Virus record (IMG/VR): IMGVR_UViG_3300045988_117450
Coordinates: 28,684-92,683 of that record
Strand: one strand, 5' to 3'
Length of the DNA: 64,000 nucleotides
Source of the DNA: a virus
The stretch's first letter is position 1. Every line of letters begins with the position of its first letter. Positions 3,101-40,628 of this stretch are shown here, one piece after another. The notes under the pieces are model-generated. The model saw only the letters and a list, made by a program, of their open reading frames with translations. It made no database searches and was not told the DNA's origin. The translations under genes and the position numbers were made by a program.

Positions 3101-6100
3101 TGAGGCAGTCTATAATTGATAAATTATATACAGGAAATGCTGATCTTCTTACTGCAAGGGAAAAAGATGTGTATGATAAACACAAACAAGATTTTGATGA
3201 TTATGTGTCGTCTTTAGGTGACAGTCCTATTAATCTCATAAAATCATTATCCGAAAGGGCTGATAGGCTTACAAGTCCAAGATCTGTGTATGAGGAAAAC
3301 AAGACCGTTATTGATATGGCTAAATCAAATTTGGAACCAGATCAAAGACAGGAACTTGATGATGCTATTTCTTCGTATGTGGATATAATGAACAGACGGG
3401 ACAAAGGGGAGAAAGTTGACGAAGATAAGCTTGCCGATTCGGTATTTACCATAGAAGATCTTGGCCAGGTTGGAAACATCACGGATCTTCTTCCTTATAT
3501 CGAACAAAACAGGATTATTGATAAAGGTCGTATCTCTGAATCTACGTTGAGTAATTTTGGGGAAGATGATGTTAATATAGATTCTCTTGTAAATGAATTA
3601 GACGAATCCGATAATACGCCGGGAGCCAACATAGATAGTGCCCAGAATCCAGAGACGTTGATGGTAAGAATAATATCCAATGATGGCAATGAAAGGTATG
3701 AAATTGCAGGTCTTAGAGCTGACAAATTTGTATCTTCGATAAAATCATTGGTTCCTATTCAAATAAGTTCTGAAACGAACGCTAATGGCACTAAAAGGTA
3801 TTCCCTTAACATAGGTGGAGAAACAGCTAATATAATGGAATTGCCTTATCATGCAAGATGGTCTATAGACAAAGAATCGGCTCGTGTTCTTAACCGTTAC
3901 ACAGATGTGTCTATTCAGGACGTGGGTAATTCATATTCTTTGGTTTATAAGCGTCTTGATTCAGACGAATTGGTTCCGTACAGAACAGGTGTTGGATTCG
4001 GAGAGAATGAAGTAGATAAAATAGATCAGGAAGCATTATCTTCTTTGAAGAAAGGAGATAAGGTTAATCTTGAGATAGATGTCAATGATACTTATAATCA
4101 GTCTCTTTTTACCGAATATGATAACGCTGTTCAGTCCGGAGATAGAAATAAAATAGAATCTGCCGAAAATAAGTTGGTATCCAATATGGTTATCAAGGTC
4201 ATGAGTGGAAACAGATTCGTTTCTGTTGTAAAAGCTGACACGGGTGGCATAGATGGTATAAGTAAAATAAGGAGAACGGCCTTTAATAAGTGGAAGAAGG
4301 ATGCTGGTCGGTCGGCCACCATCAACGTCGGCACACATGTTGTTGCCCAGACCCTTCCCGGAAGACCGGTGTTTAACATGAGAGTAAATGGACAAGGATA
4401 TGGACAAGTAGAGAATCTTCCTATTACCGAAAAAGGAGCTGAAAAAGTATCTGATGTGGGGTATGTCTTAAATGGCAAAGTCGTGCTTAAGAACGGTTCT
4501 AAATACACAGGATTCCCATTTGCTTATTCTATATTAAACGATAAGAAAAACAATTACAAAAATGTAAGAGTTCCGGTAGTTGTCATCAAAGGCAAAAACG
4601 GTCTTAATTATCTTTTCCCGGTTAGTCTACGTTCTGTGGAATCAGAGGAAGGAAAGAAATGGATTTCTTTTATAGATATGCTGCTTGAATCCGGTGACTC
4701 TGAATTGTTACAGATGGGTCAAGATGACATACAAGATCTTAATGCGTATCTAACCAAGTTAGGTCTTGATCCAGCTTCGTATCAAGTATCGTATTTGAAT
4801 CCTATTTCAGGGCTTAGAAAAGCTCGTGAGGCTATAGAAAAATTATCTATGGTTCCTGATGTTGTTAAGTGGGTAGAAGATGAAAGTAGGAGTGTGAAAG
4901 ACATTGTGACGTCTGAGGTAGAATCTGGAATAGATTTCGAAGGTGAGATGTTTGTTGCTCCTAAGATCAGGATTCAGTTTGGTAAATCATCTTCCGGACC
5001 TAAATCACTTATAGAAGATGATCTCCCTTTCTCCGATGAGGGTAAGACCGTTACTTCCAAGGAAGATGTGGATATTTACGAAGAGGAAATGCCAGAGGAA
5101 GACCCTGTCCGGGGGACTCGGCCGGCGCCACCAGCTCAGCCGGCTCCTGCGGCACAAGCTGCGCAGTCTTTACCTGGCAAGAAGCGTACCTCCAGGAAAA
5201 ACTTCTCTCTTATGTTAAACGAAATAGAATCTCATATAGAAAAAGAAGGATTGCCGCCTTATGCTAATATTTTTGATTTTATAGCAAGGAAGATTGTAGG
5301 AGGCGATTTGAGGTTTCTTCGTGAGAGAGGTAATCCAAAAAGTCTTAAGGAGGAAATGGGATTAGAACCTAAAGGAACAGTAGGTGATAAAATATCCACT
5401 CCTTCTAAAAAGGGAGGTAAGACCTTAGAAGAATATGTTTCTTGGCTTCGTTCTCAAACGGATCAGGTAGTAGCGGATTATGTTGGTCCAAGATCTGACG
5501 AACAAATTATATCAGAGTTGAAAAACTTTTTGAAATATATTAATTTTGTTCCAAGCAAGGCTTTGAATTATTCTCTTAGAGTCAATGGCATGGATACCCT
5601 AAAAGAATATGGCACAAAAGAGGAAGTAGAAAAAATGGAATCTGACATCAATAGTTTGGTTTCTGAAGTTTTGTCTACGGTGGATAACCAAACTGTAGAA
5701 GATGTTTCTACTGCAATAGAATCAAACAACTTGCCTGCCATATGGGGGCCCGTGGAAAGTCTTGATATGACAAACGAGGAAAAAATAGAGTTTTTGAATA
5801 ACGTAGCAGATTTCCTTAGTGGCATTCCAGAGTATGATGCTGTTGTGGAGTCTATAGAGTCAGAATCAGATAATATTTTAAATGATGGGAAAGAAGGAAG
5901 TGCAGAAGGCGGTGCAGTACGCACTGAGGAAGATGGCGATAAAAAGGGAGATGGAAAAAGCGAAGGACAACCCAGAGATGATGGCAAAGCTGAGGGAGAT
6001 GTCTATTTACCTGGATCTGAAGAAGGAAGAGTAGATAACTATAGGAAGAACGGAGATAAGTTCTCTGATATTGCCGAAGTTACTTTATGGTTACTTAGAA

Positions 6101-6810
6101 GGGCTGCCGGCATAACCTCTATTCAAGAAGGAGATGAGATTTATGTAGAAGGAGATGAGGTTAATAATATCATGACTGATATGGAATCCAGATATGGGAT
6201 AGATACTATTGCCCATAATCATACAGTTAAAGCTATAAGGAGCCTCAATAACGTGTCGGGATATAAGGTGGAATACGGTTTAACCTTTATGACTTACAAT
6301 CCTTTTATTAGAATATCCAATCCAAAGCAAGAGTCTAAGGCTGTAAAAGATAAACCTTATATAGCCGAAGAAGTGTTTCCTCCGATATCAAGGGTAACAT
6401 CTCCTTATTTCTTGTATGGCGGTAACGAAGCATATACATCTGTTCCGGCTAAGGTAGAATCTATACCAGAGAAGATAATAGCTCGTAATGGCATTAAATT
6501 TGGCATGAGTGTAACTGAGCTAACCAAATTAGGATACAAAAAAGCTGGTGGAAACTGGATATACAAATTCTACATGAACTCAGGTTTGTATGATTTGTAC
6601 AACATCAACACCGGTGAGGCGTTCAGGGCTAAACCCGATCTTGGAGTTAAAATAAGTTCCAGTGAATTTATACGTTCCTTATTACAATCTGGAAGAGAAA
6701 TACAGAACATGATAAGAAACATGAGTCAGGAAGAGATAGACAGGAATAAGAATCTTGTAAAAAATTCTGATAATTCAGATTCTATAAATGAGTTAAATAA
6801 GGAGTGTTGA
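166..6810 (+). CDS. giant hypothetical protein (2214 aa); probable virion, tail or ejected protein, function unknown
   Basis: 6.6-kb ATG-initiated ORF. Gly-zipper/TM-like segment around residues 235-300, long coiled-coil stretches, acidic low-complexity region (EEDGDKKGDGKSEG). Carries in-frame GC-rich islands (2251-2335, 4300-4372, 5101-5200). No recognisable catalytic motif (no DxDGD). Confidence 0.6.
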   Translation: MATDSNVNRYNPAAKTTYEDVARQRKLAEEENYTPATLPETTTPLVPNYMPGEGVYAQPEFPDYASRIAAAEYEEPYIAKEISNSYSEALARNSYRGATPAPPPLNPYGPKVSIRESHQMGNDGVWRTKYPNYIPGINNEDYYARRQSGWSKFWNGVGKFALKSALYGAQGTISLPDKLINMASEGSYKAALNTNMDKFVGDLDQRIDMLLPHYYKKEVEDYNFGQKLFKDTGNFLWNDVLGNGMSFTVGAMISAYMTGGLGVGSLGNIGAKLGGRVGAKLAARQAANRGIGSLKSVFNDYVRKGVATGRNVGEAAKTMTLLATSAGFESSVEANSFMKQSESDFKDYYRKIYGRDPNAEEMAVFRNSNADVGSAIFAANMGIVGLSNWLLFGKYIGLGGKAIPGLEKKLNKHLFGLGTEVTKPGEMAIKITNPNIGQKIAGNVFNIMKRPVSEGLWEEGSQGAVQNTAEEYVKSRYDNVAMNGAVDVLDAISDGFKKQYTSKEGWTEIGIGAIIGSLFGMREGFFGVKEYSNSQILLERQVDEYNKASSNLNTAALNTLKKSMSLGPQVRSDVQSMTGKELDDAMFEKMSIDNQMGTLEDSAENFRQMVDMMPISEIAEANGMSLEEAKKYKDSIIDNYNNRLSDFRSAQSFAEDLIGDDSKIEFRKYVARNAFLGLQSESRMKDIASVIETLSGQPRVADALSTFSRLSDRARERAMAIRGIRSRIEELESEIEDLATRPRNVDGKDPQAESIQRKTKELEDLRTNYNNSLSELSTLIGKEFSIEELVSKTESVLSSPLSPISSQDVIEAYDTLVAFDDYFNVKSRQEKEFTAKDKAMRSLVNEYRRSLIDYRNMNNFLSKMLDKRFLAEENRGFLKALSSLWSTPYKEDDKVPDFAEPNKVGEYDTDEVVDQAMSEGKISEDEAWTIKAFMHALDKVREDRVKEAEDNIKESPLTESVSDEDYEAAMDNPIMVPVVRQSIIDKLYTGNADLLTAREKDVYDKHKQDFDDYVSSLGDSPINLIKSLSERADRLTSPRSVYEENKTVIDMAKSNLEPDQRQELDDAISSYVDIMNRRDKGEKVDEDKLADSVFTIEDLGQVGNITDLLPYIEQNRIIDKGRISESTLSNFGEDDVNIDSLVNELDESDNTPGANIDSAQNPETLMVRIISNDGNERYEIAGLRADKFVSSIKSLVPIQISSETNANGTKRYSLNIGGETANIMELPYHARWSIDKESARVLNRYTDVSIQDVGNSYSLVYKRLDSDELVPYRTGVGFGENEVDKIDQEALSSLKKGDKVNLEIDVNDTYNQSLFTEYDNAVQSGDRNKIESAENKLVSNMVIKVMSGNRFVSVVKADTGGIDGISKIRRTAFNKWKKDAGRSATINVGTHVVAQTLPGRPVFNMRVNGQGYGQVENLPITEKGAEKVSDVGYVLNGKVVLKNGSKYTGFPFAYSILNDKKNNYKNVRVPVVVIKGKNGLNYLFPVSLRSVESEEGKKWISFIDMLLESGDSELLQMGQDDIQDLNAYLTKLGLDPASYQVSYLNPISGLRKAREAIEKLSMVPDVVKWVEDESRSVKDIVTSEVESGIDFEGEMFVAPKIRIQFGKSSSGPKSLIEDDLPFSDEGKTVTSKEDVDIYEEEMPEEDPVRGTRPAPPAQPAPAAQAAQSLPGKKRTSRKNFSLMLNEIESHIEKEGLPPYANIFDFIARKIVGGDLRFLRERGNPKSLKEEMGLEPKGTVGDKISTPSKKGGKTLEEYVSWLRSQTDQVVADYVGPRSDEQIISELKNFLKYINFVPSKALNYSLRVNGMDTLKEYGTKEEVEKMESDINSLVSEVLSTVDNQTVEDVSTAIESNNLPAIWGPVESLDMTNEEKIEFLNNVADFLSGIPEYDAVVESIESESDNILNDGKEGSAEGGAVRTEEDGDKKGDGKSEGQPRDDGKAEGDVYLPGSEEGRVDNYRKNGDKFSDIAEVTLWLLRRAAGITSIQEGDEIYVEGDEVNNIMTDMESRYGIDTIAHNHTVKAIRSLNNVSGYKVEYGLTFMTYNPFIRISNPKQESKAVKDKPYIAEEVFPPISRVTSPYFLYGGNEAYTSVPAKVESIPEKIIARNGIKFGMSVTELTKLGYKKAGGNWIYKFYMNSGLYDLYNINTGEAFRAKPDLGVKISSSEFIRSLLQSGREIQNMIRNMSQEEIDRNKNLVKNSDNSDSINELNKEC

Positions 6811-28462: not shown

Positions 28463-28696
28463 TTATTTAATTTTTACGATCTTAATGGAATCTCCTATAT
28501 TGTATTCCCCTTGGTGCCCAACGAATTTTATTAACCTATTACTGTGAGCTATTGAAACTCTTTCGTCTTCACCATAATACATTATACATCCACCACGTAA
28601 AGGTTTTAAATCGTATATAACCCATCCGTCATTAACTTGATTATCATATTTGCATGATGATAATACAAGTGTCATCAATAAAACAAAATATTTCAT
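28463..28696 (-). CDS. small lipoprotein (77 aa)
   Basis: Signal peptide with lipobox MKYFVLLMTLVLSS-C. Confidence 0.5.
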   Translation of the reverse strand: MKYFVLLMTLVLSSCKYDNQVNDGWVIYDLKPLRGGCIMYYGEDERVSIAHSNRLIKFVGHQGEYNIGDSIKIVKIK

Positions 28697-31213: not shown

Positions 31214-31579
31214 TCATTTTTCTTTTGCAAAGCGATCAAATTCTTCTCCGCTCATAACAATGCGGTTAATGATAATTATGCCGTTATTGCTATAATCATC
31301 ACTTTTAACTCCCATATCATCAAGCTCCTTCTCTAAGTCTTCAAATGTGGGACCTTTCTTGTCTTTAAAAAATAAAGTAGCATGTACAACCTTTCCGTCG
31401 TTTAGTTTTACTCTCACGGTATAGATATACCCTTTTTCCTCTTCATCCTTTTTGTTGACACCATCAAGGATGCTATTTATCATATCTTTGTCCTCACGTG
31501 ATAGGTTGGATATAGCTATTCTGCCCTTTAATCTAAATACTTCGTTTTCGTTCATGACTTTCTGTTTTATTGTTTTCAA
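31214..31579 (-). CDS. hypothetical protein (121 aa)
   Basis: ORF in the minus block. Confidence 0.45.
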   Translation of the reverse strand: MKTIKQKVMNENEVFRLKGRIAISNLSREDKDMINSILDGVNKKDEEEKGYIYTVRVKLNDGKVVHATLFFKDKKGPTFEDLEKELDDMGVKSDDYSNNGIIIINRIVMSGEEFDRFAKEK

Positions 31580-31838
31580 AATATTGTCTTACGGCTTCTA
31601 TGGCTTTATCATCATCAAAAGCTTCTTCAAACTCCGTATAGAATCTATCTCGTTCCATGCAGAACGTGTTCTTCCCTTCCGGTATAGGACGGAATACAAC
31701 CACCCTCTCTTTGGCGTGGTTGGTTCCTATTATGTTATTATCCAATACGATGGAATATCTTTTTGAACTTTTGTTGATAACAACATCATGTTTAAGACCA
31801 TATAATTTAAGTATCTCTCTTAATTCATTTGTTTCCAT
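31533..31838 (-). CDS. hypothetical protein (101 aa)
   Basis: ORF in the minus block. Confidence 0.45.
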   Translation of the reverse strand: METNELREILKLYGLKHDVVINKSSKRYSIVLDNNIIGTNHAKERVVVFRPIPEGKNTFCMERDRFYTEFEEAFDDDKAIEAVRQYFENNKTESHERKRSI

Positions 31839-31947
31839 TTATATGATGCAAAATAATATCAAAAATAATTAATTCTATTTCATAATCCAAATGAAATATG
31901 TATCTTAGATACATGGTTTGTAAATAGCATTTAATGTATTAAAAATC

Positions 31948-33180
31948 ATGAGATTAGTATATAAGTTTAACATAGGACAAAATGAAAATATATCATCTTT
32001 GTGCAAGATTAGCAACAACTTGTACAACCAAGCATTGTATATTTTCAGAGAAACACTTTCTAAAGAAGATAAGTGGTTATCCTATTTTGAACTTGATGCT
32101 ATCATGAAGAATACCAAGAACTTAGATGGAGACATTAATTACAGATTACTAAAGGCGCAATGTTCTCAACAAGTTCTTCGTATTCTTGATAAAAACATTA
32201 AAGGTTACTACAAATCGGTCCAAGATTACAAGAAAAATTATAATAAGTATAGGGAAAAACCTGGTCTTCCAAATTACAAAAAGAGAGGTTATGAGTTCAA
32301 TTTGTATTACACGAGTCAGAGTTGCAAAATAAAAGATGGGAAAATAATCCTATCAAAAGATATTTCAATACCCATTCCTCAATATGAGAAGTATTCTGAT
32401 TTGATAAAAGATTTCAAACAGATTAGAATAAAACCATTAGCATGTGGATATAAAATAGAAATCATTTATGAGGTAAAAGATGCTGAAGTATCTAAAGGTA
32501 GAGAAGAGAAGATTGCTTCCATTGATTTAGGAATAGACAATCTTGCAACTCTTATCAGTGAAGATTTTACTGTTCTATTTAGTGGCAAATTTGTTAAATC
32601 ATACAATCAATTGTTTAACAAAGCACTTGCTAAATTAAATAGCATAAAGGATTTACAAAAGATAAAAGGAACAACAAAACGAATAAAGAAATTATATTAT
32701 GATAGAGAACAGTACATAGAAGATGTCTTTCATAAAATCAGTAGAAAGATAGTTAATTTACTTATCGATTCCAAGATAACAAAATTAATTGTAGGCTACA
32801 ACAAGGGATGGAAAACTGGAGTAAACATGGGTAAAAGGAATAACCAGAAGTTTACACAAATCCCTTTTGCGAGATTGGTGAGTTACTTAGAATATAAATG
32901 TGAATTAGCTGGTATTGAAATAGTTATTCATGAAGAGTCATATACTTCAAAATGTGATTCATTAGCATTTGAGAAGATAGGAAAACATGAAAACTATTTA
33001 GGAAAAAGGAAGAACCGAGGATTGTTTCAATCCTCGGTAGGAAAACTCATAAATGCAGACGTAAATGGAGCATTAAACATTATGAGAAAAGTAGTCGGTG
33101 ATTCCTGTGAATCAATTCGTAGGATAATCGATAGAGGGTTATTGTTTAACCCGGTAAGGATTACGAATGTATTTTGCTAA
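31948..33180 (+). CDS. tnpB: TnpB-like / IS605 OrfB-family protein, third distinct family (410 aa)
   Basis: RuvC-I SIDLGIDNLATLISED; ...HEESYTSKCDSL...C; C-terminal ADVNGALNIMRK (RuvC-III). IS891/IS1136/IS1341-like architecture. Upstream perfect palindrome ATGTATC-TTA-GATACAT (31884-31900). No tnpA. Confidence 0.7.
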   Translation: MRLVYKFNIGQNENISSLCKISNNLYNQALYIFRETLSKEDKWLSYFELDAIMKNTKNLDGDINYRLLKAQCSQQVLRILDKNIKGYYKSVQDYKKNYNKYREKPGLPNYKKRGYEFNLYYTSQSCKIKDGKIILSKDISIPIPQYEKYSDLIKDFKQIRIKPLACGYKIEIIYEVKDAEVSKGREEKIASIDLGIDNLATLISEDFTVLFSGKFVKSYNQLFNKALAKLNSIKDLQKIKGTTKRIKKLYYDREQYIEDVFHKISRKIVNLLIDSKITKLIVGYNKGWKTGVNMGKRNNQKFTQIPFARLVSYLEYKCELAGIEIVIHEESYTSKCDSLAFEKIGKHENYLGKRKNRGLFQSSVGKLINADVNGALNIMRKVVGDSCESIRRIIDRGLLFNPVRITNVFC

Positions 33181-33238
33181 TAAGTACATTTTGAAACTTA
33201 TAAAGAAATGTAATAAGTTTTATTGAATTTAATATTTT

Positions 33239-33598
33239 TCATAACATTATTCCTTCCAAATTTACTTTAATAGAACCATTTATGGTTTTAATGCTCCCAT
33301 CTATGGTTGAAATCACATCATCTAAATCATTTATAATACTTTCCATGTCATCAACCACCTCCTCCATATCAGTTACAGCCTGATCTGATTCCCAATATCT
33401 TTCTGAGTCTTGTAACGATTCCGGTATATTATCTCTCGCCTCCGTCTCTTCATCTAAAATCATATCAATATCATCTTTGGCTGAATTTATGTTGTGCTTT
33501 AACTCCGATAACTTTGATTTGATGTATTCAAAATCTGTTTTATACTTATTTGCGTTTTTGATAACATCTGATATTTTTTTTCTTCTCTTGTTGTTCAT
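33239..33598 (-). CDS. hypothetical acidic coiled-coil protein (119 aa)
   Basis: ATG at 33596-33598 lies only 12 nt from the left end of IS copy 2, so the native upstream region was displaced by the insertion. Confidence 0.45.
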   Translation of the reverse strand: MNNKRRKKISDVIKNANKYKTDFEYIKSKLSELKHNINSAKDDIDMILDEETEARDNIPESLQDSERYWESDQAVTDMEEVVDDMESIINDLDDVISTIDGSIKTINGSIKVNLEGIML

Positions 33599-33610
33599 GC
33601 TTTTATGATT

Positions 33611-34176
33611 ATTTAACCAACAAAACCACCATACTTTAGTAGGTAGATGAATTGGTTTGATTAATTTTGAATCAAAATTACAGATAAAAAGGAGACTGTT
33701 TGAACTCCAACAAGCGTATCGTAAAATAAACGATCTTCGATCGGATTTTCAATGGGGATTAGCTCATCAGTTATGCAAACAGTATGATTATATTTTTATT
33801 GAAGATCTAAACATTGAAGGAATGAAACGTTTGTGGGGAAAGAAAGTTTCTGACCTCAGTCATTCTTCTTTTATTAACAAACTTACGTATGTTGCTTCAA
33901 AGTATGGAGTAACGATACACAAGATTGACAAATGGTATCCTTCTTCCAAAACTTGCGAATGCGGCTGCATTAATAAAGGACTGTCGTTACGCGACCGCAC
34001 GTGGGTATGCCCGGCGTGCGGTGCCATTAACGACCGTGATGTTCTTGCAGCCCGTAATATACTTCGGAAGGGCATTTCCGAATTGGAGAGCAAGAGTAAT
34101 TCCAGCGATAGTAATATCGGGGTTTCTTGCGCTTGTATCCAAGAATCCCATTTGCTTTAGCTATGGGAGTATGTCA
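33611..34176 (+). mobile_element. internally deleted (566 bp) derivative of the 7133-8370 IS200/IS605-type element, inverted relative to copy 1
   Basis: Left end ATTTAACCAACAAAACCACCAT... and right end ...GGGAGTATGTCA shared with copy 1. About 672 bp deleted between the first 11 codons and the RRRLFELQQ region; a few percent SNP divergence. TTATGAT directly upstream of the left end, as in copy 1. Confidence 0.75.
33657..34160 (+). pseudogene. tnpB: tnpB remnant (lacks RuvC-I and the REC/WED region; retains RuvC-II, zinc finger, RuvC-III and the 3' omega-RNA-encoding region)
   Basis: 167-aa ORF MINFESKLQIK|RRLFELQQAYRK...IFIEDLNIEGMKR...CECGCIN...CPACGAIN...DRDVLAARNI, collinear with the C-terminal 155 aa of the protein at 7149..8324. 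Confidence 0.7.
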
Positions 34177-36538
34177 ACCTATTATAATATTCGATAATCT
34201 TTTCTTTCCTATCTCCCGGTTTTACTGCCATATTCTCAGCCAAGAACCTAAAATACGACACCGGTATGTCTTTGAATCTAATTCCTTCATATTTTCCAAA
34301 CCACATTATTATGCTGTCAAGATCGTCCTCTCTCCTACCATCTCCATTTACGGATTTAAGCGAGGCTGCCCGGCGAAGGATCTCGTCTTTGGTAATAATA
34401 TCACCCATCCTTATATTGGACAGAAGTTGATCTCCGGCAAACATACACCAGCCTTTAGAAGGGAATTGTTCGATTGTCAAGTCTTCTATCCGACCGAAAC
34501 GCCTCATGTTGTCGCAGCAATCAACTATCAGTGCCTCTTTCTTGTCAGGATGGATGCGAACTGCACGGCCTACAATCTGGTAAAATACTGAATATGAGAA
34601 TGTTGGACGCCCAAACATCACACAGTCAAGTTCAGGAAAGTCAAATCCGGTAGCAAGCGTTGAATAATTAAAAACCACCTTCAACTTTCCTTCTTTGAAA
34701 TCGGATATAATTTGCTCTCTTTTCTTTTTGGTTGTTAGCGATGTTACGACACCGGTTATGGCTCCCATCCTGGCATTCATGAACTCTGATATTCTATTAC
34801 ATGATTCGATAGAATCCATACAGACCAAAATGGCTTTACGTTCGTTCATAAGTTGAAGAAGGCGCTTGTAGATAGAGTTGTTTAAGCCATTTCGTACAAT
34901 ACTTTCTTTAATAGATTCGTTGGTGTATTCAGCCCCGGTGCTGTTTAACATCAGAGCCGATTCATCAAACGACCATCGTTCGTACTTAAGTGGACACCAA
35001 AACCCTTGAGAAGTTAGTTCTTGTATCTGAGTCACATGAACTATTTTCTTGAAGAAGTTATGTTCGTCTTTCGTCAGCATATTGAGCTTGCTATAGTTTC
35101 CTTCCAGCATGGAACTGTAGGTTCGGAGGCGGCAGGGAGTGGCGGTGAATCCCAGCACCTTCGCCTCGGGAAACTCGCTCATAAACTCCATAAACTCAGA
35201 ACCTTCTTCAGGAGAATATCCTGAATGACAATTTCCAGAAACAAATGTATATCCTTTATATCTTAGTACTATACATCCAGATGGAACCTCTACGCAATAA
35301 ACTTGTCCGGTGTATTTTTCATATCGTTTATACATAGAGTTAGTGCCTCTTAGTTTTTTGTCTTTTGTTATAAAAAGCCTATAAACATCCGAATATGTTT
35401 CTTTTCTGCCATCCTTTTCAATAGAAACATAACATCCGTGGCCAGCTATTGTGGCTACAGAATTATAAAAATCCACCTGCGTTTTATCGGTCGATGAATA
35501 ATAAAGCATCGTATTCCCTATAATACTGCCGTCCCATAAAGAACACTCTTCTATTACCGATCTTGCTTTTTCGTAAGACATTGGGAATGATATATGATTT
35601 CGAATATCCTTTGTTGTAAACTTTGGCATTCTTACCATAAACCTTCTTCTGTTTTTCGTATTTCCTTCTTTTTCTATTTTTCCTTTAACTTCCCATATCT
35701 CAACGTTTGCATTCTTACATAAATAATGAATCCTTTTTATTTTTCTTTCTTTTGAAAATGAGAAAGATATAATTGTGTCATTTTCGTTTTTGTTATGAAT
35801 ACTTCCATCTGCTTGTGTTGCTATAAACAACCTCTCCATGTCAGATAAGGAATCGCCTTCGCTATCTACACGTGATATCCCTGATACCGGAATGCATTTC
35901 CCAGATTTAAAAGAAGCTTCAGATATTTTCTGTTTATACCATTTACCGTATTTCTTATCATAAAACAAGAAATCATGATTCTTTGTCACTGGAAGATCTA
36001 TTCCATGTTTAATATGAAGTAAACAAATGTCACCATCGTGCGGCTTGTTGATATATCTGATAGGCATCACAAAATCAATAAATCCTTTATCATATTGAGC
36101 TACCCTTACATTTTGTTCTAATTTATTAAATTGAACAAACCCTTTTTCGGTTAATATCTCCACATCTCCAGTAAAACATTCATCTATCAAGATCGTATCT
36201 ATCCCTATATCCTTCAACCTCGCTACATCTTTTTTTATGCTCTTTAATGTTGCATAAGTCATAGCCGACAGTTCCTTTATACCACATGAAGCAGAATATA
36301 TGGTAGGTTTAGAATCGAATGATACGGCCTTTGCATAATTCTGCTCCAGAATCTCTTTTGAGGGCTGTAATACTAATGTTGGTCTATTTATTTCATGTGC
36401 TATCTTGGATATCAGAAGGCTCTTTCCACATCCACATGGAGCTACGATTATGCCAGGCTTTTTAGATCTTCCTGTAAGAAACTTAAGCCCGGCATCTACC
36501 GCCTCTTTTTGGTAAGGTCTAAGTTCAAAGCCCATCAC
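34157..36538 (-). CDS. superfamily-2 DExH (DECH)-box helicase interrupted by a 316-aa intein. Precursor 793 aa, GTG start; mature ~477 aa.
   Basis: Motif I APCGCGKS, Ia LVLQP, II ILIDE|C...|CHSGY (DECH after splicing), III LGFTATP, VI QIVGRAVR. The last ~6 codons and the stop lie inside the IS copy 2 right end (34160-34176). Confidence 0.8.
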   Translation of the reverse strand: MMGFELRPYQKEAVDAGLKFLTGRSKKPGIIVAPCGCGKSLLISKIAHEINRPTLVLQPSKEILEQNYAKAVSFDSKPTIYSASCGIKELSAMTYATLKSIKKDVARLKDIGIDTILIDECFTGDVEILTEKGFVQFNKLEQNVRVAQYDKGFIDFVMPIRYINKPHDGDICLLHIKHGIDLPVTKNHDFLFYDKKYGKWYKQKISEASFKSGKCIPVSGISRVDSEGDSLSDMERLFIATQADGSIHNKNENDTIISFSFSKERKIKRIHYLCKNANVEIWEVKGKIEKEGNTKNRRRFMVRMPKFTTKDIRNHISFPMSYEKARSVIEECSLWDGSIIGNTMLYYSSTDKTQVDFYNSVATIAGHGCYVSIEKDGRKETYSDVYRLFITKDKKLRGTNSMYKRYEKYTGQVYCVEVPSGCIVLRYKGYTFVSGNCHSGYSPEEGSEFMEFMSEFPEAKVLGFTATPCRLRTYSSMLEGNYSKLNMLTKDEHNFFKKIVHVTQIQELTSQGFWCPLKYERWSFDESALMLNSTGAEYTNESIKESIVRNGLNNSIYKRLLQLMNERKAILVCMDSIESCNRISEFMNARMGAITGVVTSLTTKKKREQIISDFKEGKLKVVFNYSTLATGFDFPELDCVMFGRPTFSYSVFYQIVGRAVRIHPDKKEALIVDCCDNMRRFGRIEDLTIEQFPSKGWCMFAGDQLLSNIRMGDIITKDEILRRAASLKSVNGDGRREDDLDSIIMWFGKYEGIRFKDIPVSYFRFLAENMAVKPGDRKEKIIEYYNRLTYSHS
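35231..36178 (-). other. intein with a LAGLIDADG homing-endonuclease domain, inserted at helicase motif II
   Basis: N-terminal block A CFTGDVEIL (Cys1 = residue 121), block B VTKNHDFL (T.NH), LAGLIDADG-like LFIATQADGSI, C-terminal ...TFVSGN followed by +1 Cys (CHSGY); 948 bp in frame. Confidence 0.7.
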
Positions 36539-36911
36539 AATCTATTATATTATTTTTTGAAAGTTCTATTATCGCCTCTTTCAACATCTCCCTTGCTTTA
36601 TTCTCATTATCTTCAAACAGGCATACACTGCATGTAGCACCTTTGGAGGGGTAGTCTCTGTAGGCTTCTGCTCTTTCTACAACGTACTCACAACAATAGT
36701 CGTGACTCATGTCTTTTGCTATACTTATGAAATGATCTTCTCCATCCATCAACACGCAATATTCAGCATCGTTTTCGCATGCAATAACACCTTTGTTTTT
36801 TAAAATGGATAGCACTTTATTTCCAAAAAGTCCAATATAGACCCATATACCTTTCCCTGCATTTTTGTAAAAAATATCCATCCCTTCTTTGATTGTGACT
36901 TTCTTTTCCAT
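36525..36911 (-). CDS. hypothetical protein (128 aa)
   Basis: ORF upstream of, and overlapping, the helicase start. Confidence 0.45.
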   Translation of the reverse strand: MEKKVTIKEGMDIFYKNAGKGIWVYIGLFGNKVLSILKNKGVIACENDAEYCVLMDGEDHFISIAKDMSHDYCCEYVVERAEAYRDYPSKGATCSVCLFEDNENKAREMLKEAIIELSKNNIIDCDGL

Positions 36912-36917
36912 AATCCC

Positions 36918-37232
36918 TTATTTTATATCAGTAATTAAAACATATCTTTCGACAATATCTTCAAGCTCCATAGAACATAACAAACTTGGGCTTTTTCCGT
37001 ACTCGTACAGAGCGTACCCTTCCTTTATATCTAATATCTTGATTATATGCTTGCCTCTTTCAAATGGATCCATGAAGTAGCCTTTGTATTCGTATCTTTG
37101 ACCAACTTTTATTTTGTCGGTCTTCTTCTTCATCTTATACCGATCTATTACCCTGCTTATTTTTATAAGAATCGTTACAAACAAGTATGATAATAAAAAG
37201 ACCGCTGCTCCTGCTATCAATGCTCCTTTCAT
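36918..37232 (-). CDS. small membrane protein (104 aa)
   Basis: N-terminal TM helix ALIAGAAVFLLSYLFVTILI. Confidence 0.45.
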   Translation of the reverse strand: MKGALIAGAAVFLLSYLFVTILIKISRVIDRYKMKKKTDKIKVGQRYEYKGYFMDPFERGKHIIKILDIKEGYALYEYGKSPSLLCSMELEDIVERYVLITDIK

Positions 37233-37398
37233 TGTATTTCTTTTAAGTAGTTAAACCATATATCCTCCAGTCTTTCCTGAAGCTCAAACGCTTTCTTGAA
37301 ATTCCCGCATCTTACAGCAACGTCTCTCATGTATTCTACGTTTATAACTTCCGGATCTTGCCGGTATTTTGTTCTTAACTTTTGAACGTCCTCGTATT

Positions 37399-38418
37399 TC
37401 ATCGTTTTATCTTTTTAGACGGATCCCAATCCGAAGAGAAAGGGCATTCGTTTTTGTTATGTAATCCAAAGTCGCAATAATAACACAGTGCTGACGGGCA
37501 GGGTAGCTTGTTTTGCGAAACAGGCTGGCTTAGGGTGGCACGCCGCTTGCTATACCTGGCTCCTTCTGCTCCCTGGATGTACGCTTGAAATGATTTTACA
37601 CTATTATCTTCAAAATCATACATTTTAGACAAAGTGTCATTTAGCATCTCTATAGATTTTGTTTTACGTTCCTCATCCACCTTAACCTTTTGGTACTGCC
37701 TGGTCCTGGTAAAGAAATAGATGTTCATATCTGGAAGAACTCCACCATATCTTCTATAGATGTAAAATGAATATATAGGATGCTGTAAATTCGTTTCCAA
37801 CTTCTTAGAATCAAAAACCTTATTACCTGATTTCCAATCTATGACATAATGGTGAACTACGTTCTTGCTTTTTATAGCCAGATGAAGGTCTACCGATCCT
37901 ACTATGTACACATGAGTATGAATTACTCCATTTATGTTAACAGGCTTAGGAAGACGGTACGGCAGCACAAAATCTTCTTCGACTCCAACTATGGCGCCGT
38001 GTCTGATAAGTTTCTCACAGGGATTAAGATCACTATCAGCTATCATAAACCTATTCCCGTCTTTTTTAAACAGATCCACAATCCAAGCAAGAAGTTCTCC
38101 AGATTGTTTCATGGCTATCATCATATTTTCCGGTGATTGCCAAGGTATGTCTTCTTGGTAAGCATAGTAACTTATTGCTTCTCCAAGGTCTTTACCAGAA
38201 GGCTGTCTTCCGTTCTTGAAAAAGTATTCCAGTGTCTTATGAATAACCGTACCATAAGACGTAGCTTCTTGTTTTTCTGTAGACCTTTTACCTTCCACAT
38301 AAGTCTTATACCATTTCATTGGACAAGTAAGAAACGTATCTATCTGGGAATAAGATATGGCAAGACGTTTCACACCATTAAACTCCTTATATAGCAAATG
38401 CGTTTCTGGGACCATCAT
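37399..38418 (-). CDS. Cas4-like / RecB-family PD-(D/E)xK exonuclease with an Fe-S cysteine cluster (339 aa)
   Basis: Motif I with Cys SYSQIDTFLTCPMKWY, motif II IVGSVDL, motif III VIDWKSG (DYKTG-like), QhxxY QHPIYSFY, C-terminal CPSALCYYC...C. Contains GC-rich island 37488-37590. Confidence 0.65.
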   Translation of the reverse strand: MMVPETHLLYKEFNGVKRLAISYSQIDTFLTCPMKWYKTYVEGKRSTEKQEATSYGTVIHKTLEYFFKNGRQPSGKDLGEAISYYAYQEDIPWQSPENMMIAMKQSGELLAWIVDLFKKDGNRFMIADSDLNPCEKLIRHGAIVGVEEDFVLPYRLPKPVNINGVIHTHVYIVGSVDLHLAIKSKNVVHHYVIDWKSGNKVFDSKKLETNLQHPIYSFYIYRRYGGVLPDMNIYFFTRTRQYQKVKVDEERKTKSIEMLNDTLSKMYDFEDNSVKSFQAYIQGAEGARYSKRRATLSQPVSQNKLPCPSALCYYCDFGLHNKNECPFSSDWDPSKKIKR

Positions 38419-38774
38419 AAGCTATCGTCTTTAAATCCTTCCGGGTAATATACGACATACTTCTTACCATCTTCTGGTGTCATGGCGAACTGCATGTAGT
38501 TGTTACGATTACGATGTTTGCCATCCAATCCACGTTTCCAATACAGTATCCCGTCTATATCCACATAAGATCGGCCTCGGTCGGCTCTAACTACGTCCGT
38601 GTGCAGCAGATACCCGTCGGAAGACACGATCCACACTTTATCCCCTTTGTTTAAATAGGATATTCTTTTTCTTACAACAACCTTTTTCTTATTATCTAAT
38701 GCAAATTCCTCATCAGTCATACTCTTCATCCTCCTCTTCTTCTGTTTCAAAATCAATTCCATAACACTGATCAT
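38415..38774 (-). CDS. hypothetical protein (119 aa; internal Met may be the true start)
   Basis: ORF between the flotillin and nuclease genes. Confidence 0.4.
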   Translation of the reverse strand: MISVMELILKQKKRRMKSMTDEEFALDNKKKVVVRKRISYLNKGDKVWIVSSDGYLLHTDVVRADRGRSYVDIDGILYWKRGLDGKHRNRNNYMQFAMTPEDGKKYVVYYPEGFKDDSL

Positions 38775-38927: not shown

Positions 38928-40628
38928 TTATTTTTTGTCATCTCCTTTTAACTTCTTTAAAGTATCTGCAATCGGAAGCTGATCAATGACTCCCAATGCC
39001 GGAGCAACGGCCTTAACAACATTGTTAAGGAAATTACCGGTGCTGTTCTGACCGCCGTCAAATACCGTGATATTTCCGAGATTGATGTGCTCGAACGCCT
39101 TAACCTGTTCTCCAGCAATTTCTTTCCACTGATTAACCATCTTGTACTGGATGGCGATCTGAGGATTGGATTCTGCTGCTTCCACCATAGCCTTAAATCC
39201 GTCGGCTTCTGCCATTAACGACTTTTTCTTACCTTCGGCTTCTGCCTCCAGCTTCATCTGAATAGCTTTTGCCTCTGCCTCAGCTTTTGCCAAATGTGCT
39301 GATGCCTCAGCCTCAGCCCGGCGTTTGATCTTCTCGGCCTCGGCATCAGCTTGCAAGATAGCCTCTTCCTTCTGGGTTTCAGCCGGCACAATCTTTTCAG
39401 CCTTAAGCGCAGCCTGAACTTTCTTAGCCTTAGCTTCTTCCACTTCTTTGTCTGCAAGCTCTTTTGCTGTTTTTACAGCCGCTTCCGATTTAACTTTTTC
39501 TTCTCCGGCCTTCTTTTCTGATTGAGCTTTGATAATCTGCAATTCTGATACTGACACAGCAACCTCCTTCTGGGCATTGTTGTATCCTATAGACGCATTT
39601 TTCTCAGCCTCAGCCTTCTTAATCTGAGCTTCAGAGTTTTGTATTGCTATAGCTGCTTCCTTGTCAGCTTCAGCCTTGTTCTTTCCGACTTCTTCCATCC
39701 TTTCAGCCTCGGCTTTATTTACTTCAAGTTCTGCCTTAGATCTTACGATCGCCGATTCCTTGTCGGTTAAAGTTTTTGCGATAACCGCAGCCCTATCTCT
39801 ATCTGCTTGAGCTACACCAATCTGTTTTTCTTTATCGGTTAAAGCCAAAGCTATTTCTTTTTCTTTCTTCGTTTCAGCTACTATTGTTTCCTTTTCTTTT
39901 TCAGTACAAGCAATTTGAATCTCTTGTTCTTTTTTGGTATTAGCCACAGCCGTTTCTTTCTCCTTCTGCTGTACAGCAATCTTAATAGCCCCCAGCTTCT
40001 CCTGTTCTTCGATATTAGCCTGTGCTTCGTTCAGAGCCCTACTTTCAGCCTCCTTACCAAGGTTCATAATATAACCGGCTTCGTCTCTAATGTCACTGAT
40101 GTTGATGTTCAGGAGGTAAAGACCTAACTTGTTAAGCTCGTTATCAATGTTCTTTCTTGCCTTATCCAAAAACTCATCCCTGTCAGAATTAAGTTTTTCG
40201 ATTGTCATTTCAGCAATAATCAAACGCATCTGACCGTAAACGATGTCCGTAATAAGATTTTCAGTAGATTCGGTATCCATTCCCAAAAGTCTTTCTGCCG
40301 CATTTTGCATGATCTCTGGATTTGTACTGATAGCTACTGTAATAGTCGTAGGAACATCTACTCTAATATTCTGAGATGACAAAGCACCGGTAAGCTTGCA
40401 ATCTATTTGCATAGGCTCCATTGACAAAACATCATAGCTTTGAATAATAGGCAAGACAAATGCCGCTCCACCATGATATAATTTCGCCGATTTCTTTTCC
40501 CCACCTGTCTTACCATAAACGACCAAGACCTGATTAGGCTTACATCTACGATACCTTGATAAGACTCCGATGATTGTCAAAATAATCACTACAGCTAAGA
40601 TAGCTGACACGTACATGATTGTTGTCAT
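38928..40628 (-). CDS. floT: flotillin-like SPFH (band-7) domain protein, FloT/YuaG/YqiK family (566 aa)
   Basis: N-terminal TM helix; SPFH core NQVLVVYGKTGG...YHGGAAFVLPIIQSYDVLSMEP...; long EA/AEAE-repeat coiled coil; C-terminal NITVFDGG. Close resemblance to B. subtilis FloT (GGGTFVLPVFQ, KITVVDTGG). Confidence 0.8.
   Translation of the reverse strand: MTTIMYVSAILAVVIILTIIGVLSRYRRCKPNQVLVVYGKTGGEKKSAKLYHGGAAFVLPIIQSYDVLSMEPMQIDCKLTGALSSQNIRVDVPTTITVAISTNPEIMQNAAERLLGMDTESTENLITDIVYGQMRLIIAEMTIEKLNSDRDEFLDKARKNIDNELNKLGLYLLNINISDIRDEAGYIMNLGKEAESRALNEAQANIEEQEKLGAIKIAVQQKEKETAVANTKKEQEIQIACTEKEKETIVAETKKEKEIALALTDKEKQIGVAQADRDRAAVIAKTLTDKESAIVRSKAELEVNKAEAERMEEVGKNKAEADKEAAIAIQNSEAQIKKAEAEKNASIGYNNAQKEVAVSVSELQIIKAQSEKKAGEEKVKSEAAVKTAKELADKEVEEAKAKKVQAALKAEKIVPAETQKEEAILQADAEAEKIKRRAEAEASAHLAKAEAEAKAIQMKLEAEAEGKKKSLMAEADGFKAMVEAAESNPQIAIQYKMVNQWKEIAGEQVKAFEHINLGNITVFDGGQNSTGNFLNNVVKAVAPALGVIDQLPIADTLKKLKGDDKK

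Follow-up and report, generated by a model that had tools for sequence, protein, structure and literature searches.

A probable endonuclease-bearing intein in the DECH box of a RadD-like helicase of a human-gut phage

Within a 64,000-nucleotide stretch of viral DNA (positions 28,684 to 92,683 of IMG/VR record IMGVR_UViG_3300045988_117450, referred to here as the window) lies a gene for a superfamily 2 (SF2) helicase whose motif II is interrupted by a block of 948 nt. This block is very probably a bifunctional intein, comprising a Hint splicing domain and a nested two-motif LAGLIDADG endonuclease, inserted between DE and CH of the DECH box of a RadD-like enzyme. Its presence/absence polymorphism, its portability, its invariant terminal residues, its fold and its young age are established here. 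The block is not a product of chance, because it is precisely absent from orthologues that are 97–98% identical, recurs at full length in more than 150 database representatives and has invariant terminal residues. A first-pass annotation, made from the letters alone, had proposed a LAGLIDADG-type intein at this place, and the empty alleles, the portability, the invariant ends and the predicted fold all bear it out.

From a GTG start the helicase open reading frame (ORF) spans 793 residues; the true start is probably the ATG at 36535, giving a precursor of 792 residues, because homologues begin MGFELRPYQ. The intein occupies residues 121–436 of the GTG-started ORF, or 120–435 if translation starts at the ATG. 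The precursor is predicted at 90.9 kDa, the spliced helicase (476 residues) at 54.3 kDa and the intein at 36.6 kDa, in agreement with the shift from 90 to 54 kDa expected at first pass. The exteins match Pfam ResIII (E value of 1.3e-14) and Helicase_C (4.8e-18) as well as PHROG 16 ‘DNA helicase’, and the SF2 motifs GCGKS, DE/CH and FTATP are all visible in the helicase alignment (here and below, a slash within a sequence marks an insertion junction). As the exteins match the RadD/YejH model NF053632 (2.4e-55) at 187.9 bits, below its equivalog cut-off of 720, the host protein is classed by sequence as RadD-like and not as RadD. The gene and the parts of the intein, all on the minus strand, are as follows.

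34157..36538, minus: helicase precursor ORF, RadD/YejH-like SF2 (ResIII plus Helicase_C), from the ORF translation, profiles and alignment.
36179..36535, minus: N-extein, with motif I (APCGCGKS) and ending ..DTILIDE, the first half of motif II.
35231..36178, minus: predicted intein, CFTGDVEILT...TFVSGN, 316 residues, 948 nt, between ..DTILIDE and CHSGYSPEE.
35879..36178, minus: N-terminal half of the Hint domain, intein residues 1–100, from alignment and model.
36176..36178, minus: block A, Cys1, from translation by coordinate.
35975..35986, minus: block B, TKNH (T65-K-N-H68), from translation by coordinate.
35354..35866, minus: LAGLIDADG homing-endonuclease domain, intein residues ~105–275, from alignment, model and fold search.
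35804..35830, minus: LAGLIDADG motif 1, LFIATQADG, with Asp124.
35528..35554, minus: LAGLIDADG motif 2, IEECSLWDG, with Asp216, absent from the first-pass annotation.
35231..35353, minus: C-terminal half of the Hint domain, residues 276–316, with blocks F and G, VYCVEVPSGCIVLRYKGYTFVSGN.
35294..35296, minus: block F position 4, Cys295, followed by Arg306, Gly315 and Asn316.
35231..35236, minus: C-terminal Gly-Asn.
35228..35230, minus: +1 Cys of the C-extein.
34160..35230, minus: C-extein, with the +1 Cys-His completing DECH, motif III (GFTATP), Helicase_C and a DUF3820/QSregVF_b-like C-terminal tail.

Translation gave exactly the 316-residue block reported earlier (35231–36178, between ..DTILIDE and CHSGYSPEE), and Cys1, TKNH, LFIATQADG, the C-terminal Asn and the +1 Cys all lie where they had been placed when checked by coordinate. 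The insert reads in frame without stops and has a GC content of 0.326 against 0.412 for the exteins, and a GC content at third codon positions (GC3) of 0.26 against 0.42. An explanation of the insert as a ribozyme or intron is unsupported, as a scan of 31500..38500 matched no Rfam RNA family and the insert is in frame and stop-free.

The polymorphism is seen most directly among the close relatives of the gene. Searched with the conceptually spliced helicase, the database yields 1894 homologues, the best of which fall into three length classes at 96–98% extein identity: a 473-residue class that is insert-free, with clusters of up to 1906 member sequences; a 794-residue class with the same insert as the window (P0112, 169 members); and an 817-residue class with a different insert. 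The 473- and 817-residue proteins align as ..LL(I/V)DE-CHSGYSPEE.. with no gap residue, and the 473-residue orthologues, which are 97–98% identical, read ..LLIDE-CHSGYSPEE.. without the intein, the motif that excision had been expected to restore. In the DNA of the empty alleles GAA is followed directly by TGT, a difference of exactly 948 nt, so that the comparison with intein-free homologues called for at first pass finds such alleles with an exact junction. The intein is thus polymorphic and not fixed, and the 473-residue empty alleles dominate. The empty sites are of the following forms.

Empty DECH-coding site: ..TTGATAGACGAA/TGTCATTCAGGA..
Empty site, L001 type: ..ACCTTATTGATAGACGAA/TGTCATTCAGGATATTCT..
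Silent-variant empty site, L006/L007 type: ..TTGGTGGACGAA/TGCCACTCGGGGTATTCC..

In loci L006 and L007, over the region equivalent to window 35207..36199, six silent changes fall within the eight codons 3' of the empty DECH site (TGC CAC TCG GGG TAT TCC CCG GAG) and three further changes lie immediately 5' of it, with a local identity of 80–84% against ~94% gene-wide. This silent cluster may be a target resistant to the homing endonuclease or a conversion patch. Inserted in Walker A of many near-identical 817-residue alleles (P0023–P0111 and others) is an unrelated intein of 344 residues (APCG/CHAKGY...FIHHN/SGKS), which matches Pfam Hom_end_hint and has a canonical His-Asn/Ser end (loci L006 3001–5454 and L007 2078–4531). 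In the window helicase this Walker A site (36428..36445, minus) is empty, and a more distant homologue, P0001, has inteins at both the Walker A and the DECH sites. The intein-free locus L001 carries a free-standing NUMOD4 plus HNH_3 homing-endonuclease gene (5879–6508, plus) a few genes downstream of the helicase, which was not seen at the same position in other related loci.

The same block recurs well beyond this gene. An exhaustive search of the family among cluster representatives at 50% identity gave 3586 matches at E ≤ 1e-3 and 1528 at E ≤ 1e-10, and nearly all of the best 150 representatives match over query residues 1–316, with the block lying inside a longer protein. The insert alone also matches, as an internal segment, the PHROG profiles of ribonucleotide reductase (RNR; 5e-21) and PhoH (4e-10). 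Database relatives occur in other SF2 helicases after DE, and in RNR R2 at both ExxH iron-ligand motifs (FME/C...N/CVHAKSY and ARDEA/C...N/CHMNG), and the block is hosted in isolated phages by RNR alpha, RNR beta, NadV, TOPRIM primase, ThyX, RtcB, PhoH and primase/helicase proteins, at identities all ≤34%. With the family hidden Markov model (HMM), matches were obtained to the Bethlehem RDF/phosphoesterase intein (2.4e-28), to the annotated Turj99 ‘intein-containing topoisomerase primase’ (9e-57) and to the RNR-alpha insert of Staphylococcus phage Romulus (1.6e-84). By these searches the clade is very large and mostly unannotated, and most of its sampled members lie in the DE/CH box of SF2 helicases. 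Several metagenomic proteins (P0257, P0145, P0162, P0165, P0233 and P0261) hold two copies of the intein family: in P0257 (1294 residues) the two copies, at residues 102–747, are separated by just two extein residues (..FSGN/SE/CYDKETQI..), and in P0261 one copy is in the P-loop and one at DE/CQ.

Cys1 and the C-terminal Gly-Asn are present in all 157 full-length database blocks, which are inserted after DE in 136 of 157 cases and otherwise in P-loops, RNR motifs or elsewhere. The +1 residue in these blocks is Cys (147), Ser (9) or Thr (1), and is Cys in the window. When the window copy is added (n = 158), C1, H68, G315 and N316 are conserved at 100%, T65 at 97% (154/158), D124 at 99%, D216 at 97%, R306 of the block F/G region at 94% and C295 at 99% (157/158), and the window copy departs from the consensus at none of the positions with ≥90% conservation. 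A conserved patch of K143, R145 and K146 is also present in the endonuclease domain. Position 13 of block F (F:13) is usually Gly rather than His and position 6 of block G (G:6) is always Gly (158/158); the penultimate Gly, noted at first pass as a less common variant, is therefore real and uniform in the family, and is documented in phage inteins that have been shown to splice (PMC5050341). Position 12 of block B (B:12) is Met in 44, Leu in 38 and Gln in 30 members, with no Trp among the six commonest residues, and G:5 is Thr in 61, Val in 34, Ser in 32 and Ile in 16 of the 158. In the window copy these positions are Cys295 (F:4), Gly301 (F:13), Gly315 (G:6), Phe70 (B:12) and Ser314 (G:5).

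An AlphaFold2 model of the intein, built on ten sequences, has a mean predicted local distance difference test score (pLDDT) of 91.1 and a predicted template modelling score (pTM) of 0.88. The predicted fold is that of a Hint domain with a two-motif LAGLIDADG endonuclease. Among PDB structures, the top Foldseek matches are the TliVMA and PhoVMA inteins (E values of 4e-13 to 5e-11), followed in order by PI-SceI, PI-PfuI and PI-TkoII, and then by I-DmoI and mini-inteins such as 6zgq; I-DmoI, a free-standing two-motif LAGLIDADG enzyme, matches the model at a template modelling (TM) score of 0.53–0.60 on the target. Secondary structure assigned to the model by DSSP runs H113–124/E/E/H144–156/E/E and H202–215/E/E/H232–244/E/E, so that two helices each end in a catalytic acidic residue within a pseudo-dimeric α-β-β-α-β-β core, as expected of a LAGLIDADG enzyme. 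A single-sequence phmmer search of the insert against PDB sequences gave a chance match only (E value of 1).

Divergence between two intein-bearing alleles shows that the intein is much younger than its host gene and suggests that it has moved recently. The intein of the window and that of L004, from another metagenome, are identical at 940 of 948 positions (99.2%), whereas their exteins differ at 105 of 1410 positions (92.6% identity; Fisher p = 8e-16 for intein versus extein), and the window exteins are closer to those of empty alleles (95–96%). Immediately upstream of the insertion, the 50 nt at 36179..36228 are identical at 49 of 50 positions between the two intein-bearing alleles and at 46 of 50 positions against empty alleles, and the distal N-extein of the window is 90.3% identical to that of L004. 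This flank, which is common to the intein-bearing alleles and lies within the N-terminal junction region listed below, is probably a co-conversion tract. The pattern is the one that homing with a short co-conversion tract would leave, and as a comparison of two alleles it is consistent with homing and is not a proof of it.

36129..36228, minus: N-terminal junction region, with the extein flank common to intein-bearing alleles.

From these comparisons we infer splicing by the window copy, the route of its nucleophiles and the activity of its endonuclease, in the following scheme. Translation would yield a 91-kDa precursor, expected to be inactive as an ATPase because the intein splits the Walker B/DExH box and the role of motif II is known. 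By analogy with class 1 splicing, Cys1 would undergo an N-S acyl shift aided by Thr65 and His68, the +1 Cys would take over the N-extein by trans-thioesterification, Asn316 would cyclise without a penultimate His (Gly315 being invariant in the family), and an S-N shift would release a 54-kDa helicase with an intact DECH box and a free 37-kDa endonuclease. The endonuclease may then cut the DECH-coding site in co-infecting phages whose allele has no intein, and repair would copy in the intein and, with it, a short piece of the extein upstream. On its residues the intein is filed as class 1, because the class 3 signature fails: Cys1 never varies, Trp is never found at B:12, G:5 differs among members and most +1 residues are Cys.

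Several observations weigh against the reading as a splicing, mobile intein. In single-sequence searches, the score is 21.6 bits for NCBIfam TIGR01445 (intein_Nterm; cut-off 24.5) and 14.5 for Pfam PF14890 (cut-off 35.8; E value of 0.03); Pfam LAGLIDADG_3 is below threshold (E value of 0.057), and PF14890 is found at E ≤ 0.01 in just 4 of 16 members of the intein family. With curated profiles below threshold, the intein call therefore rests on comparative and structural evidence; the low scores reflect how well the profiles cover the clade and not a lack of intein features. The usual assisting residues of class 1 are missing, F:4 being Cys and not Asp, F:13 Gly and the penultimate residue Gly, and the detailed splicing chemistry is therefore uncertain. 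The block F Asp, the block F His and the penultimate His are common in inteins but not obligatory, and the penultimate Gly is no obstacle, because the Bethlehem RDF intein, which also has a toxic endonuclease, splices with Gly and does so more slowly as the G316H mutant (Kelley et al. 2016, PMC5050341). The support for splicing and cleavage by the window copy is comparative and structural rather than experimental, and that for homing comes from two intein-bearing alleles only.

A departure from the plain class 1 route is conceivable, if rather unlikely: Cys295 could take part as an alternative or relay thioester acceptor, making a class 1/class 3 hybrid, or as a redox switch, in which a disulfide with Cys1 or the +1 Cys would gate helicase maturation. 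An F:4 Cys, which class 3 inteins require as their nucleophile (PMC2807308), stands in 157 of 158 members alongside a Cys1 found in all 158, and among PDB sequences the family profile most closely matches the class 3 AceL NrdHF intein (6zgq, E value of 6e-12), with colinear Ser65, His68 and Met70. By its authors' account that intein has Ala1, an ‘MCT’ triplet of Met70, Cys124 and Thr144, Pro128 and Gly129 after the Cys and a penultimate Gly145, and lacks the two assisting His residues (Hoffmann et al. 2021, PMC7891396). It shares the odd traits of the family: Met at B:12 (the commonest residue of the family there), the F:4 Cys with a Pro four residues on, the penultimate Gly and the lack of both His residues (PMC7891396). 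Oxidation-induced disulfides at the catalytic Cys are reported for a class 3 DnaB intein (PMC6195587). Against such a role, the absolute conservation of Cys1 implies that it is used, class 3 inteins letting position 1 drift (PMC2807308); B:12 lacks Trp and G:5 varies; the +1 residue is Cys in 94% of blocks, whereas in class 3 it is mostly Ser or Thr (PMC2807308); one member, P0007, has Gly at F:4; and the related Bethlehem RDF intein is taken to be class 1 by Kelley et al. (PMC5050341). Compared with the class 3 (WCT) signature, the window copy has the F:4 Cys, and it has a nucleophile at position 1, no Trp at B:12 and no Thr at G:5. We would also regard as speculative the proposal that the clade, with Cys1 and F:4 Cys and without the three assisting residues, is the class 1 stock of AceL NrdHF-type class 3 inteins, splicing by a dual-thioester relay or controlled by a Cys1–Cys295 redox gate. 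Were such a gate present, helicase maturation in this phage of the anaerobic gut would be conditional.

Many inteins lose endonuclease activity once they are fixed. A decaying or domesticated intein, which still splices, as a working helicase requires, but has an inactive endonuclease and is inherited only vertically, would fit this frequent course and the sub-threshold LAGLIDADG_3 match. We consider it improbable for the window intein, in which both catalytic Asp residues and all family-conserved endonuclease residues are intact, and whose high identity relative to its exteins (99.2% against 92.6% between two lineages), polymorphism with dominant empty 473-residue alleles and short flank peculiar to intein-bearing alleles, resembling co-conversion, all speak for mobility. 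The reading as an ordinary accessory domain that is not excised in this lineage of helicases, for which nothing speaks except the lack of an intein profile match at curated thresholds, is already contradicted and hardly credible, as the segment splits the catalytic DECH box, is missing from 97–98% identical orthologues, occurs at catalytic motifs inside unrelated enzymes and has a predicted Hint plus LAGLIDADG fold. The first-pass annotation had named a conserved helicase domain as the outcome that would overturn the intein, and the segment proved instead to be portable, being found in RNR R2, RNR alpha, NadV, primase and PhoH, among other proteins.

Two other features of the helicase gene had been noted at first pass, an insertion sequence (IS)-derived C terminus and a GC-rich recoded island, and each was upheld in part. 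They correspond to the following features.

33607..34177, plus: truncated TnpB (IS605-family OrfB) element, 571 nt, inserted three codons before the helicase stop.
35105..35179, minus: GC3-rich patch, helicase codons 454–478 (25 codons, with motif III GFTATP), GC3 0.80 against 0.42 for the exteins.

Orthologues end ..EYYNRIKA* and the window helicase ends ..EYYNRLTYSHS*, so that only the last six residues, LTYSHS in place of IKA, come from the TnpB element; the displaced ATA AAA GCA TGA (IKA*) persists at 33595..33606. An IS-derived C-terminal domain is ruled out, as orthologues without the IS conserve the tail as far as ..EYYNR. The ORF of the element (33657..34160, plus) encodes 167 residues with a Cas12f1-like TNB domain (PF07282, 1.5e-20). 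Lying 400 nt beyond the truncated element is a full-length TnpB of 410 residues (31948..33180, plus), and related phage contigs have no TnpB insertion at the helicase 3' end. The GC-rich patch is likewise real, only 0.5% of 80-nt stretches in the window being as GC-rich, but all alleles have it, intein-bearing and empty alike, and it is therefore not tied to the intein. A co-conversion tract or intein-linked recoding is ruled out for the patch by its presence in all alleles, and AT-rich codons lie between it and the junction.

The helicase gene sits in a replication/recombination module and adjoins a PD-(D/E)XK nuclease gene. The closest annotated genome is that of csAssE-Sib, a 151-kb human-gut Caudoviricetes phage whose ‘ATP-dependent DNA helicase’ is without the insert, and by sequence the host of the intein appears to be a related human-gut tailed phage of ~150 kb. 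A literature search on phage csAssE-Sib found no relevant paper. At 38928..40628 (minus) the window encodes a flotillin/Band_7-like protein of 566 residues with a long Ala/Glu/Lys-rich coiled coil; this gene is also annotated in csAssE-Sib, where it adjoins an acyl carrier protein gene.

For annotation, the gene should be read as one helicase and not as a 90-kDa multidomain protein, and as standard Pfam and NCBIfam thresholds miss the clade, uncalled inteins are probably present in thousands of helicases, RNRs and primases of metagenomic phages. A gut-phage population with empty, DECH-intein, Walker-A-intein and silent-variant alleles offers a natural setting in which to follow homing, co-conversion and, possibly, site immunity. 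The combination of Cys1, F:4 Cys and Gly-Asn may be of interest for studies of intein mechanism and for ligation tools, F:4 Cys and Gly-Asn being found also in the fast-splicing AceL NrdHF intein. The current understanding of inteins is unchanged: phage inteins of the same family, some annotated as inteins and including ones without a penultimate His, are already known, and mildly new are the failure of curated profiles to detect the clade, its metagenomic size, its concentration at DE/CH among sampled members and the link to AceL NrdHF.

Of known inteins, those of Bethlehem RDF and of the cluster A1 TOPRIM primases belong to the same family. All have ~316 residues, Cys1, TxxH, an F:4 Cys and a penultimate Gly-Asn, and all are phage inteins that enclose a LAGLIDADG endonuclease and interrupt a catalytic motif (PMC5050341). 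They differ in being ~25% identical to the window intein, in their host proteins (metallophosphoesterase and primase, as opposed to an SF2 helicase) and in belonging to actinobacterial rather than gut-bacterial phages; the +1 residue of the Bethlehem intein is Ser, and that of the window intein Cys.

The closest solved structure by sequence is AceL NrdHF-1-1 (6zgq), in which block B residues 65 and 68 are numbered alike. In common with the window intein it has a hydrophobic residue other than Trp at B:12, an F:4 Cys followed by Pro, a penultimate Gly, no assisting His and an origin in a phage, which for AceL is probable. The features of its C-terminal half are taken from PMC7891396 and not from alignment; a 38-residue consensus of blocks F and G gave only chance TBP matches in the PDB. 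AceL NrdHF differs in having Ala1, in being a proven class 3 intein and in being naturally split, with no LAGLIDADG domain and a GIY-YIG gene between its halves, whereas the window intein is a contiguous, endonuclease-bearing element that starts with Cys1.

PI-SceI, PI-PfuI and TliVMA share the architecture of a Hint domain with a nested two-motif LAGLIDADG endonuclease (Foldseek E values of 4e-13 to 3e-8, query-normalised TM scores of 0.57–0.66) and the life cycle of splicing plus homing. They are only 9–13% identical to the window intein, range from 360 to 540 residues, end in His-Asn and reside in V-ATPase, RNR and polymerase genes of archaea or yeast. Inteins in ATP-binding and hydrolysis motifs are also known from replication and repair ATPases, among them SF2 helicases (SNF2/HepA, Ski2-like, RecG and UvrD; Novikova et al. 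2016, PMC4760082). As in the present case, these occupy P-loop and Walker B sites, with several sites possible per gene (PMC4760082). That survey covers cellular genomes, whereas here a RadD-like helicase of gut phages has unrelated inteins at its Walker A and DECH sites in different alleles.

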